A stretch of 38,684 bases of DNA, taken from contig JBFJHJ010000031.1 of NCBI GenBank assembly GCA_041613315.1, positions 1 to 38,684 of the forward strand. Direction: 5' to 3'. Positions within the stretch are counted from its first letter, which is position 1, and each line of letters opens with the position of its first letter. This DNA is from Gemmatimonadales bacterium (GTDB lineage Bacteria > Gemmatimonadota > Gemmatimonadetes > Gemmatimonadales > GWC2-71-9). Position numbers: made by a program. Of this stretch, positions 1 to 2,979 are shown in pieces.

Positions 1-2979
1 GCGCCGCCCCCGCCCTCCCGCCCGGCGAGCAGCACCGGGAGCGCCCCCTTGGCTACGTCGAACGCCGCGACCGGTGCGGCGAACTTCCAGCCCAACACGC
101 GGTAGACGTTCGTGGCGCCGAGGTTCCCGCTTCCGTACTCACGCAGATCCGTGCGCCCACCGAGGCGACCGGCCAGATAGCTGGCGGGGACGGCACCCAG
201 CAGGTACGCGCCAAGGATCCAGAGGGCCGCCGTCATCGGCGATTCCGCTTCCGCCGGAACTTGAGGCGGAGTGGCGAGCCCGTGAACGGCCACACATCGC
301 GGAACCCGTGCTCGAGGTAGCGCTGGTAGGCGTCCGGGATCGCGTCCGGCCGGTTGGTCACGATCGCGAAGGACGGCGGGCACGTCCCCACCTGCGAGCC
401 GTACAGCAGGTTCACCTCCTGCCCGTGCGTCTGTGGTGGCTGGTTCCGCGCGACCAGCTCGCGGAGCACCCGATTGACCTCGGCGGTGGGCACCCGCCGC
501 TGGCGAGCCTCCGCCACCGCCAGGATGAGATCGAGGAGCTTGCGGACCCGCTGGCCCGACAGCGCCGACACGTACACGAACGGCACGGCCCGAAGGAATG
601 GCGCCCGGTCCACCACGTCTCGCTCGCCGCGGACAGCCGTGGTCGTGTCTTTGTCCTCAATCAGGTCCCATTTGTTGACCGCGATAATGAGGCCGGCACC
701 GCGCTCCCAAGCCGCCTGGGCCACCCGGATGTCCTGAAGGTGCACCCCCTGGGTCGCGTCCACGACCAGGACGCACACCTCGGCGCGCTCGATCGCGCGC
801 TCGGTCCGCAGGGCGGAATAGAACTCGATCTCATCTTCTACTTTCGATCGCTTCCGTAACCCCGCAGTATCAATGAAGTTGAGCGAGAGCCCCTTGTACC
901 GCAAGGGGGAATCCACGGCGTCCCGAGTGGTCCCGGCTTCCGGCGCGACGACCGCACGCTCCTCTCCCAGCAGGCGGTTCAACACACTCGACTTGCCGAC
1001 GTTGGGGCGCCCCACGACGGCCACGTCGATCATCTCCTCGGTGGTGTCGGGCGCCTGGTGCGGCAAAAGCCGGGCGAGCCGGTCGAGGAGGTCGCCACTG
1101 CCCTTCCCCGTGGCGGCGGAGACGGCCTGGGGATCGCCCAGGCCGAGCTCGTGGAACGCGTGGTAGGAGACATCGTCGGGGAGGGCGTCGGCCTTGTTGG
1201 CCACCACGATCACGCGGTCGCCGTACGAACGCAGCAGGCCTGCGACTTCCTGGTCGACCGGATGGACTCCCGCTTGCGTGTCCACGACGAACAGGATCGC
1301 GTCGGACGCGTCGATCGCTAACTGGATCTGGCGGCGGATCGCTTGGCTCAAGGCGTCGCGGTCCCGCACGATCCAGCCCCCGGTGTCCACCAGCCAAAAC
1401 GGCTTGCCGGCCCACTCGCTGCGGGCGAAGTGCCGGTCGCGGGTGATCCCGGGGCGCTCGTCGACGATGGCCCGGCGCCCGCCCACGATGCGGTTGAACA
1501 GCGTCGATTTGCCGACGTTCGGTCGCCCGACGATGGCGACCGTGGCGCGCGTCACACCGCCGCGCCCACGGCCAGGGCGTCCGTGAAGTGGTAGGAAAGC
1601 CGGATCTCCACCGGCGCGGCGGCCTTGAGGGCGGCGACCGAGAGATCGTCCACGAAGTGGCCGTCGTCGTTCACGGCCTCTGCGGGCAGGAGTGCCAGGT
1701 CGAGATCCGGGCGCGACCGGAGGGCCTCGAGGAACGCCCGCCCGGGAAGTAGCCCCGCCGACGTGACCGTCGGGCCGAAGAGGTCGTTGCGGAGAGTCAG
1801 GAGCTCGAAGCGGGCCGCCGTGCGCGCGTGGAGCACCTCGAGGACGTGGGGCATGAGCCGTCCCATCGCGGTCCCCGTGAGCACGCCCACGGTGACGCCG
1901 TCGAGGTCGCCCAACGCGTCCGCGTCGTGCGTGATCCGCTGCTGGAGATAGCGCACGCTGCCCACTCCGTTCTCCACCTGTTCGAATCCGTCGTAGCGGG
2001 CGGCGGGCGGCAGTGGCAGCTCGGCGACGATATAGAGATCGTCGGAGCCATACACCCAATGCCGGTCCCGCTCCCTCCGCGCCCGCTGAGCGACCTGCTC
2101 GACCGTGGCCAGCGCTGCGCGACACTCCTCGCGCGTCGGCTCGCGCACGAGGTGCTGCTTGCTGAACTCCGTGAGCCCGACCGGGACGACCGAGACCGAG
2201 AGCACGGCGTCCCCCAACCGGTAGAGGTCGTCCAGGCTCTGGTCCAAGACGGCGCCGTCGTTCACGCCGGGCTGGAGCACGATCTGCGTGTGGAAGCGGA
2301 TGCCGCCGGCGGCGAAGGCCGCGAGTTGCTCGCGGACTGCCGGCGCGCGCGGATTACGGAGCAGCCGCCGCCGCACGACCGGATCGGTCGCGTGGACCGA
2401 GACGTAGAGCGGCGACAGGCGATACTCGAGGATCCGCTCGATGTCCGTGGGCTTCAGGTTGGTGAGCGTGGCGAAGTTGCCGTGCCGAAACGAGAGCCGG
2501 TAGTCGTCGTCACGAACATACAAAGTCTCCCGCAGGCCCTCCGGAAGGCCGTCCACGAAGCAGAAGTCACAGCGATTGCCGCAGCGCCGGACGCGCGGCG
2601 GTTCGAGCTCGACGCCGAGCGGCAGGCCCTCGGGGCGTTCGACGTCGAACTCGATGAGCTCGCCCTCGGGCGACATCGCCAGGAGAGCGAACCGGTCGTC
2701 GGCCGTCAGGAACTCCCAATCCAGGAAGTCGCCGAGGTCCCGTCCGTTCACCGAGCGGAGCTCGTAGCCCGGCCGGAGGCCGAGCTCGGCCCCGAGGGAG
2801 TCGGGGTGGACGGTCCGGACGCGGATCATTCGGTCGTTGCGCCGTCGGTGAGGAAGGCGGGCCCGGTGCGATCAAAGGGGGCAGCGATCGCGTCGCGAAA
2901 GTCGTCCCTCGCGCCGTCTTCACTACCCCCGCTGCTGTCCCTGCATGGTGCTCCAGAGCGGGCGACCGGACTCGAACCG

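Follow-up and report, generated by a model that had tools for sequence, protein, structure and literature searches.

The stretch of DNA analyzed here (the window, 38,684 nucleotides of a Gemmatimonadales contig) opens with three genes on its minus strand. The first in the direction of reading, at positions 1552–2829, is an ORF of 425 aa that encodes a PDZ/radical SAM/DUF512 enzyme of the csDUF512 type. It is followed on the same strand by der (engA) at 233–1555, whose 440-aa product is a ribosome-biogenesis GTPase with two G domains and a KH-like domain (514.2 bits against TIGR03594, cut-off 306.7; Pfam matches to MMR_HSR1, twice, and KH_dom-like), and by plsY at 3–236, of which only the N-terminal part precedes the contig edge. 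This last gene encodes acyl-phosphate:glycerol-3-phosphate acyltransferase; it matched profile positions 2–63 of PF02660 (E 6.3e-20) and probably starts at M50 of the listed ORF.

The initial annotation described a 4-nt overlap between the enzyme gene and der, and the sequence bears this out: the TGA stop of the enzyme gene (1554–1552) and the GTG start of der (1555–1553) share GTGA (1552–1555, minus strand). At the second junction, absent from that annotation, the TGA of der (235–233) and the ATG of plsY (236–234) share ATGA (233–236, minus strand). No terminator-like site was seen in the window sequence between the three genes. Translation would be coupled from the enzyme gene, the first of the run, through der to plsY, and gpsA very probably comes next after plsY, beyond the contig end. 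Overlaps of 4 nt between the enzyme gene and der were counted in 26 of the 31 loci from Gemmatimonadota and in 7 of the 28 other der-adjacent loci, and they recurred in three phyla; these counts are estimates, with start codons chosen heuristically.

Upstream of the enzyme gene, at a distance of 126 nt, ARAGORN and Rfam placed a tRNA-Gly(CCC) (2956–3028, minus strand), itself preceded by a promoter-like TTGACA-18-CATACT at 3040–3069. The interval between the tRNA and the enzyme gene held no terminator-like site, and the two may be on one transcript. Rfam, run on the complete window in search of leaders and riboswitches, gave nothing beyond this tRNA. It was rejected as a conserved operon member: apart from the window, L020 was the one locus with this tRNA directly upstream; in 10 other Gemmatimonadota loci it was 1.5 to 6.7 kb away, and 9 of the 26 scanned had no tRNA.

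Domains and residues of the enzyme

The ORF, the Pfam matches, and the similarity to csDUF512 (PDB 9CG1) agree with the initial description of a PDZ–radical SAM–DUF512 protein with a CxxxCxxC motif at residue 83. The motif C-G-N-R-C-D-F-C occupies residues 83–90 (2560–2583, minus strand) and supplies the cluster cysteines C83-x3-C87-x2-C90, followed by F91. Radical_SAM_2 (PF19238) matched residues 70–212 (E 8e-57, 191.6 bits, cut-off 26.7), and DUF512 (PF04459), the cobalamin-binding domain, matched residues 215–410 (1600–2187, minus strand; E 7.4e-42, 143.4 bits, cut-off 25). In a phmmer search the enzyme aligned to chain 9cg1_A with an E value of 1.2e-71.

The N-terminal PDZ domain had been noted only as a weak look-up match, and its PDZ_6 score (residues 4–43, 25.2 bits) falls below the 27-bit cut-off. 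Alignment with csDUF512 places a circularly permuted PDZ domain at residues ~1–78 (2596–2829, minus strand), with a carboxylate-binding loop, L71-G72-V73, that corresponds to L72-G73-I74 of csDUF512. The AF2 model (pLDDT 94.5) superimposed on 9cg1 with a TM score of 0.87 over 438 columns in Foldseek, compared with 0.57 for 9cg2 and 0.43 for Mmp10 (7qbs), and its N-terminus resembled the PDZ domains of RseP (TMt ~0.7) and GRASP55. Judged by the modeled structure, the PDZ domain is genuine despite the low PDZ_6 score.

Every residue named in the 9CG1 paper was kept: the cysteine triad, F95, the DDD motif, T323, L366, and the PDZ loop. In an alignment of 64 sequences, C83, C87, C90, and F91 (aligned to C87, C91, C94, and F95 of 9CG1) were invariant, as were D107 and D109 of the motif D107-D108-D109 (2503–2511, minus strand; csDUF512 D111–D113). 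Within the DUF512 domain, T318 and L360 align with T323 and L366 of csDUF512, and L360 was likewise invariant. Passages of the csDUF512 study describe F95 as the aromatic residue between cluster and corrin, D112, the middle aspartate, as a ligand of the unique iron, T323 as a contact of the DMB tail, and L366 as occupying the lower axial position (PMC11659888). In four other members of the family, according to the same passages, cobalamin is bound and methylcobalamin is formed from SAM (Wang et al., 2024; PMC11659888). We therefore assign the enzyme to the class-2 (Mmp10/csDUF512-type) cobalamin-dependent radical SAM proteins, with an N-terminal permuted PDZ domain; its cofactor use is predicted from sequence.

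Signs of B12 use in the host genome were one Cbl riboswitch and five proteins that match B12-binding domains, four of them above the Pfam cut-off and the fifth more weakly. Among 101 Chloroflexota genomes, a Cbl riboswitch was present in 41 of the 44 with the enzyme gene versus 47 of the 57 without it; B12 use is common in that phylum, and the comparison is therefore not informative. The enzyme is strongly acidic. Its PDZ domain carries a net charge of −10, the median for the family being −7.5. Across 64 members of the family the median pI was 5.3, with 51 below 7. This charge faintly suggests a basic protein or peptide tail as the substrate, not naked RNA.

Gene order across phyla

The der gene was directly downstream of the enzyme gene in 59 of 74 assessable loci (80 sampled, six incomplete). 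By phylum, der followed the enzyme gene in 31/31 loci of Gemmatimonadota, 22/22 of Bacillota, and 4/30 of Chloroflexota, where the linked loci form a separate subclade. It was beside the enzyme gene in none of the sampled loci of Cyanobacteriota (0/30), Nitrospirota (0/30), or Acidobacteriota (0/16), 0/76 in total. Adjacency was thus all-or-nothing by phylum. Each phylum was represented by 16 to 31 loci; for loci added after the first 80, flanking sequence was only 1.5 kb long, and neighbors were identified by tblastn or by Pfam on crude ORFs. The initial annotation had given adjacency in about two-thirds of genomes as a property of the family. It is indeed widespread, but not family-wide, and our samples are compatible with the two-thirds figure being an average weighted by composition. 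On a tree of 172 tips the der-adjacent state required at least eight changes and is therefore not one inherited event.

Where der was present, the conserved unit was DUF512–der–plsY–gpsA. Of the 31 Gemmatimonadota loci, 29 showed the complete order enzyme–der–plsY–gpsA and two broke off within der; in the 22 Bacillota loci, plsY was present in 19 and gpsA in 16. Where der was not a neighbor, the recurrent upstream genes encoded the lipid enzymes BacA, PgsA, and PlsC. In Cyanobacteriota, 17 of 30 loci had bacA/uppP as the next gene upstream, read in the same direction. In Nitrospirota, pgsA was upstream in 18 of 30 (11 directly, seven with ~0.5 kb between); it was also near the enzyme gene at L077, at L165, and in Acidobacteriota (L085/L156). 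The plsC gene was upstream in five Chloroflexota loci (L054, L058, L083, L124, and L128) and near the enzyme gene at L080. The substrate of BacA is undecaprenyl pyrophosphate, not phospholipids, so that "lipid" is a loose category here.

Other membrane proteins encoded upstream were an AI-2E permease (six Nitrospirota loci), an Rce1-like protein, and a rhomboid protein. Translation-related neighbors comprised YhbY (three Chloroflexota loci), YceD with or without L32 (three Bacillota loci), rpsA (two loci, one on the opposite strand), miaA–hfq, a MiaB-like gene, YacP, TrmO, PrmA, and LepA. The family is large. Its gene is near-core in Cyanobacteriota (79 of 81 sampled genomes, including those of 1.5–2 Mb) and Gemmatimonadota (71 of 81), and patchy in Chloroflexota (44 of 101), Nitrospirota (36 of 61), and Acidobacteriota (17 of 81 at E 0.001 or better). 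It was found in only two of 14 control genomes, with Deinococcus among the carriers and Thermus among those that lack it. Further carriers are Synechococcus elongatus and Synechocystis, where it is not linked to der, Gemmatimonas aurantiaca, where it is, and Deinococcus radiodurans.

With lipid enzymes as neighbors in the loci without der, and plsY–gpsA after der in the others, gene order cannot separate a role in the 50S subunit from one in phospholipid or membrane synthesis, and it singles out neither Der nor the 50S subunit as the target. The enzyme is therefore tied to a ribosome-plus-phospholipid block and not to Der alone.

The proposal of a link to der as new does not hold, since both the neighborhood and a translation-related role have been in print since 2019. 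In passages of Muley et al. (2019; PMC6411480), PDZ–radical SAM "Fe-S oxidoreductases" adjoin engA (der) and gpsA (their fig. 6b), and a translation-related role for the family is proposed, before the cobalamin finding. In the literature searched, supplements aside, only that paper and its preprint linked the family to Der, and the substrate was named nowhere. What is unpublished is only the combination of the der neighborhood (Muley) with cobalamin binding (Wang). The window adds a clean example, with apparent translational coupling, of a kind of evidence that is not new, and the initial annotation needs correcting in that the link to der holds only in some lineages and had been published before, while the neighborhood signal points equally to phospholipid genes.

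Passages of two reviews name the function of DUF512 enzymes explicitly as an open question (PMC13331322, PMC12931638), which would become testable with a reliable lead to the substrate. In two Tn-seq studies the DUF512 gene of Clostridioides difficile came out as either essential or ambiguous (PMC12157513), a score that polarity on der may explain. The Synechocystis "neutral site" at slr2030 was rejected as proof of dispensability: integration is into the slr2030–slr2031 intergenic region, and slr2030 is therefore not shown to be disrupted.

Chemistry and possible substrates

The best joint explanation, to which we give a probability of about 0.55, combines five elements: a class-2 enzyme with a PDZ domain, a coupled run enzyme–der–plsY, a chemistry taken over by analogy, a basic substrate, and a genomic block of mixed function. 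By analogy with csDUF512 and Mmp10, one SAM would methylate cob(I)alamin, and a second would be cleaved at a [4Fe-4S] cluster on C83, C87, and C90 to give a 5′-deoxyadenosyl radical. This radical would take hydrogen from the substrate, at an unactivated carbon, and the substrate radical would then receive the methyl group from methylcobalamin. The enzyme would belong to a growth-coupled housekeeping block that joins large-subunit assembly (der) with phospholipid synthesis (plsY and gpsA, elsewhere plsC, pgsA, and bacA).

In the initial annotation, the proposed role was C-methylation, coordinated with the action of Der, of some part of the 50S subunit during its assembly: 23S rRNA, or the tail of a ribosomal protein bound through the PDZ domain. 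The 59 of 74 loci with der directly downstream speak for this, including all those of Gemmatimonadota and Bacillota and the Chloroflexota subclade, as do the estimated 4-nt overlaps in three phyla and the repeated changes on the tree, by which the adjacency is not one inherited event. An acidic PDZ domain would suit the basic tails of ribosomal proteins, some neighbors are linked to the large subunit (YhbY, YceD with L32, PrmA), and near-universal presence in cyanobacteria, small genomes included, would agree with a target that is part of a universal machine. Independently, Muley et al. (2019; PMC6411480) came to the same idea. However, this support is gene order alone. The der gene was never a neighbor in the 76 sampled loci of three phyla, and since it is itself coupled to plsY–gpsA, the adjacency signal is not assignable to der. 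By the initial annotation's own count most bacteria have Der and lack the enzyme, in line with its presence in two of 14 control genomes. An acidic protein is an unlikely direct binder of rRNA, and in Foldseek no clear homology to ribosome-modifying radical SAM enzymes of the RlmN/Cfr or RimO type appeared: RlmN and Cfr matched the fold weakly (TM 0.20–0.21) at ranks 42 and 45. We consider methylation of a 50S component in step with Der rather unlikely. A more specific form is equally speculative. Here PDZ–DUF512 enzymes would place a cobalamin-dependent C-methyl group on a basic protein of Der's late 50S intermediate, and the mark would persist where the gene lies beside pgsA, plsC, or bacA. 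If true, bacterial ribosome biogenesis would have its first B12-dependent step, and thousands of orphan enzymes would gain a function.

A role in membrane lipid or envelope biogenesis, with der as a bystander in a growth-coupled operon, seems to us similarly doubtful. The target could be a protein of the pathway from glycerol-3-phosphate to phosphatidylglycerol, a protein of a lipid-carrier pathway, or a lipid. Genes for four steps of the former pathway were found at most two genes from the enzyme gene in different phyla: gpsA and plsY (Gemmatimonadota, Bacillota), plsC (Chloroflexota and L080), and pgsA (the 18 Nitrospirota loci, L085/L156, L165, and L077). To these add bacA/uppP in the 17 loci of cyanobacteria, whose operons are little conserved, and the permease, Rce1-like, and rhomboid neighbors. 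Against this role, a PDZ domain implies a protein ligand, and the four lipid enzymes are unrelated, so that no single neighbor-encoded substrate fits. Ribosomal and phospholipid genes often share operons for regulatory reasons, the rpmF–plsX cluster being an example of such mixing. We know of no B12-dependent methylation of a lipid or lipid enzyme that is common to these phyla. The purification of csDUF512 as a soluble protein, described in passages of PMC11659888, also tells against a lipid role.

That Der itself is the substrate or direct binding partner, in analogy to the Mmp10 gene that adjoins the genes of its substrate enzyme, is very improbable: immediate adjacency and translational coupling would fit, but three phyla have the enzyme gene without der beside it, and since the last residues at the C-terminus were not conserved among 36 Der proteins whose genes adjoin that of the enzyme, a conserved C-terminal PDZ ligand in Der is unlikely.

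Comparison with known systems

The closest counterpart of the enzyme is csDUF512 of Clostridium sporogenes (PDB 9CG1), which has the same order of PDZ domain, short radical SAM core, and C-terminal cobalamin domain. At ~31–36% identity, the cysteine triad, F91, the DDD motif, T318, L360, and the PDZ Leu-Gly-Val loop of the enzyme are conserved between the two, and relatives of csDUF512 in Bacillota directly precede der, as the enzyme does. Unlike that of csDUF512, the host is an aerobic, high-GC Gemmatimonadales bacterium, and cofactor binding by its enzyme is a prediction.

Passages of Muley et al. (2019; PMC6411480) give the same architecture for the "Fe-S oxidoreductase" PDZ–radical SAM family (slr2030, GSU1997). 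The enzyme scored 316.4 bits against TIGR03279 (cyano_FeS_chp), below the cut-off of 574.7; it belongs to a sister subfamily of TIGR03279, not to the cyanobacterial equivalog. The Pyrococcus furiosus protein pfDUF512 (PDB 9CG2) has a related cobalamin domain and radical SAM core (E 4.8e-11, TM 0.57); unlike the enzyme, it is archaeal, lacks a PDZ domain, and has a (βα)5 core.

Mmp10, the arginine C-methyltransferase of methyl-coenzyme M reductase (PDB 7QBS), lacks the PDZ domain and has a full (βα)6 core, unlike the enzyme, and the TM score was only 0.43. With 30.7 bits against TIGR03278 (cut-off 350), the enzyme is not a member of the Mmp10 family. The two share the class-2 layout (radical SAM core first, then the cobalamin domain), a leucine under the corrin ring, and probably the dual use of SAM. 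Mmp10 modifies a protein, and its own gene lies near the genes of its substrate.

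The enzyme gene and its coupling to der

The gene of the PDZ/radical SAM/DUF512 enzyme is an ORF of 425 residues at 1552-2829 (-), followed by der at 233-1555 (-), which scored 514 bits with TIGR03594 against a cut-off of 306.7. The 4-nt overlap described in the initial annotation was borne out: GTGA at 1552-1555 (-) holds both the TGA of the enzyme gene and the GTG of der. At 233-236 (-), ATGA likewise joins the TGA of der to the ATG of plsY, which runs into the contig end and is hence partial. The two overlaps indicate that translational coupling goes beyond the first pair and includes all three genes; the coupling of the enzyme gene to der is real. 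Upstream, tRNA-Gly(CCC) (2956-3028, -) is separated from the enzyme gene by 126 nt and is itself preceded by a promoter-like site, TTGACA-18-CATACT (3040-3069, -). No terminator-like site was found between the tRNA and the enzyme gene, and the Rfam scan of the window gave no match apart from this tRNA. Of 26 Gemmatimonadota loci scanned, 11 have this tRNA on the upstream side, between 0.1 and 6.7 kb away; tRNA-Arg(CCT) is a recurrent feature on the downstream side, some 4 to 7 kb from the enzyme gene.

The domain layout annotated initially also stands, with Pfam matches to Radical_SAM_2 at residues 70-212 (8e-57) and DUF512 at 215-410 (7.4e-42), and the cluster motif CGNRCDFC at 83-90; PDZ_6 matched residues 4-43 with 25.2 bits, just below the 27-bit cut-off. 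The closest solved relative was csDUF512 of Clostridium sporogenes (9cg1_A, E 1.2e-71), followed by pfDUF512 of Pyrococcus furiosus (9cg2_A, 4.8e-11) and Mmp10 (7qbs_A, 1.4e-5). An AlphaFold2 model from a 64-sequence alignment (mean pLDDT 94.5) superposes on 9CG1 with a TM of 0.87, on 9CG2 with 0.57 and on Mmp10 with 0.43, and its N-terminal part also matches the PDZ domains of RseP and GRASP55.

Residues named for csDUF512 in passages of the structural paper (Wang et al., 2024; PMC11659888) were transferred to the window protein by pairwise alignment with 9cg1_A. The cluster ligands C87, C91, and C94 correspond to C83, C87, and C90; F95, between cluster and corrin, to F91; the DDD motif D111-D113 to D107-D109; T323, which contacts the DMB tail, to T318; L366, at the lower axial position, to L360; and the PDZ carboxylate-binding loop L72-G73-I74 to L71-G72-V73. 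C83, C87, C90, F91, D107, D109, and L360 were invariant across the 64 aligned sequences. The protein scored 316 bits with the cyanobacterial TIGR03279, under its equivalog cut-off of 574.7, and 30.7 bits with the Mmp10 model, which places it in the PDZ-DUF512 class and in neither curated equivalog. That the gene encodes a new csDUF512-class member is well supported. This genome has a cobalamin riboswitch and, above cut-off, four proteins with B12-binding domains, which show that cobalamin is in use in this organism; we infer that the window protein binds cobalamin and transfers methyl.

Spread and history of the der link

An alignment scan of species genomes gave matches in at least 600 stretches. 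Analysis went on with the best 80 loci, a set biased to relatives of the query, and six that end at or inside the enzyme gene were left out. Among these best 80 of at least 600, der was the next gene downstream, in the same orientation, in 59 of the 74 assessable loci: all 31 from Gemmatimonadota, all 22 from Bacillota, and six of the 21 from other lineages. With start codons picked heuristically by nearness to the alignment, the 4-nt overlap was present both in Gemmatimonadota (26 of 31 loci) and among the other der-adjacent loci (7 of 28), most remaining gaps being -16 to +37 nt.

Sampling by phylum used the 30 best-scoring loci of each (18 in Acidobacteriota) with 1.5-kb flanks. The family was present in 79 of 81 cyanobacterial genomes (der directly downstream in 0/30 loci), 71 of 81 Gemmatimonadota genomes including the unpublished genome G381 (31/31, from the first set), 44 of 101 in Chloroflexota (4/30), 36 of 61 in Nitrospirota (0/30), and 17 of 81 in Acidobacteriota at E ≤0.001, 15 of them above cut-off (0/16). 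The adjacency is widespread. The figure of about two thirds of all genomes with both families, given initially, thus averages lineages near 100% and near 0% and is weighted by the numbers of Bacillota and Gemmatimonadota genomes.

A FastTree of 172 enzyme sequences, from which rows were dropped if they had fewer than 330 aligned residues or contained an internal stop, mostly tracks phyla; four pairs of loci are the same place (L053/L112, L054/L137, L044/L184, L085/L156). Der-adjacent sequences fall into three groups. One is a clade of Gemmatimonadota, to which pgsA-linked Nitrospirota and Acidobacteriota are the sampled sisters; the second, from Bacillota, is paraphyletic and has the cyanobacteria nested within it; the third is a subclade within Chloroflexota. 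The der-adjacent state requires a minimum of eight changes, a count in which gains and losses are not told apart. Accordingly, the link is either old or has recurred, and it has been kept for a long time, which favours selection on co-expression; the same applies to the der-plsY-gpsA block. Three MAG contigs, L060, L057, and L080, are labelled Chloroflexota, Bacteroidota, and Actinomycetes, respectively. These labels may reflect mis-binning: L060 (YIEGIA cap, DUF3189) and L080 (plsC-ispH) have Bacillota-type neighbours, and one der-linked "Chloroflexota" sequence, possibly L060, lies outside the Chloroflexota clade. The three were excluded as independent phyla for the der link.

Lipid and translation genes beside the enzyme

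Neighbours were typed by Pfam scans and tblastn with neighbour proteins. In Gemmatimonadota, der is followed by plsY and gpsA at 29 of 31 loci, and the sequence of the remaining two stops inside der. Among the 22 Bacillota loci, 19 have plsY after der and 16 have gpsA. Upstream of the enzyme, der-linked loci are variable (e.g., DUF3189, PhoU, YceD, SHMT, YIEGIA). Cyanobacteria have bacA/uppP as the immediate upstream gene, on the same strand, in 17 of 30 loci. In Nitrospirota pgsA is upstream in 18 of 30 (11 directly, seven with about 0.5 kb between), an AI-2E-family permease in six further loci, and aroE is often downstream; pgsA is also upstream in the Acidobacteriota locus L085, in L165, and in L077. 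The Chloroflexota loci L054, L058, L083, L124, and L128 carry a gene for a PlsC-type acyltransferase upstream, in many cases after cmk, and L080 has one as well. In 7 of the 30 Nitrospirota loci, a small ORF of about 144 aa without a Pfam family stands between pgsA and the enzyme gene (L168:424-858, L184:2743-3177, L044:6566-7000, and four more); it is a possible conserved partner.

Translation-linked neighbours occur too and are thinner than the lipid theme. Three Chloroflexota loci, related to one another, have YhbY, and three from Bacillota have YceD, either with L32 or without it. L041 has rpsA together with a MiaB-like gene, cyanobacterial L115 has rpsA on the opposite strand, and two loci of Desulfuromonadales have miaA-hfq. 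YacP, TrmO, PrmA, MnmG, and LepA occur once each. YhbY/CRS1 is an RNA-binding protein known from pre-50S particles. In the YhbY loci (L129, L130, L132) the enzyme gene that follows codes for about 525 aa; a GAF-HD signalling protein lies downstream of it in L130 and neighbours the enzyme without YhbY in L131, L136, L142, and L143.

The genes gpsA, plsY, plsC, and pgsA, for four steps between glycerol-3-phosphate and phosphatidylglycerol, and likewise the lipid-carrier phosphatase gene, are each no more than two genes away from the enzyme in some phylum, der in three phyla only. Lipid genes form a consistent second neighbourhood theme. The most defensible reading is that the enzyme is part of a growth-coupled housekeeping block in which genes for large-subunit assembly and for phospholipids are mixed. 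The first proposal, made from gene order, that the family would methylate a 50S component in step with Der is put by us at about one in five; a tie to phospholipid or envelope synthesis is equally supported. Acidity of the family (pI below 7 in 51 of 64 members, median 5.3, window protein 5.15) and of its PDZ domain (net charge -10 in the window protein, family median -7.5) hints weakly at a basic protein tail over direct RNA binding. The extreme end of the last 22 residues was not conserved in 36 enzyme-adjacent Der proteins, which speaks against the Der C-terminus as conserved PDZ ligand.

The 50S proposal had been anticipated in 2019 by Muley et al. (PMC6411480), whose figure 6b has PDZ-radical SAM "Fe-S oxidoreductases" adjoining engA(der) and gpsA. 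As initially stated, GTPases go unmentioned in the passages of PMC11659888, which leave the substrate open, and passages of two later reviews (PMC13331322, PMC12931638) still pose the role of DUF512 enzymes as a question. The literature searched yielded neither the der link combined with the cobalamin finding nor any substrate. According to passages of PMC12157513, the Clostridioides difficile orthologue is among the essential-or-ambiguous genes of two Tn-seq studies and had no CRISPRi targeting; polarity onto der could explain its listing.

Other genes in the window

With genes called from the first start codon, those of a LarC-type nickel-insertion protein (4508-5812, -) and of a PLP-dependent (PALP) enzyme (5739-6890, -) share 74 nt, and the true LarC start is probably further downstream. 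An ATP:guanido phosphotransferase gene (PF00217, McsB-like protein arginine kinase; 26078-27403, -) immediately precedes the gene of a ClpC/ClpB-type AAA+ protein that has Clp_N and UVR motifs (23573-26044, -); the pairing, known from Bacillota, occurs here in a Gemmatimonadales genome. The release factor gene at 31104-32096 (-), with PCRF and RF-1 domains, codes for just 330 aa, and its PCRF match begins at profile position 12. A different frame may encode its N-terminus, as happens in prfB with its programmed +1 frameshift.
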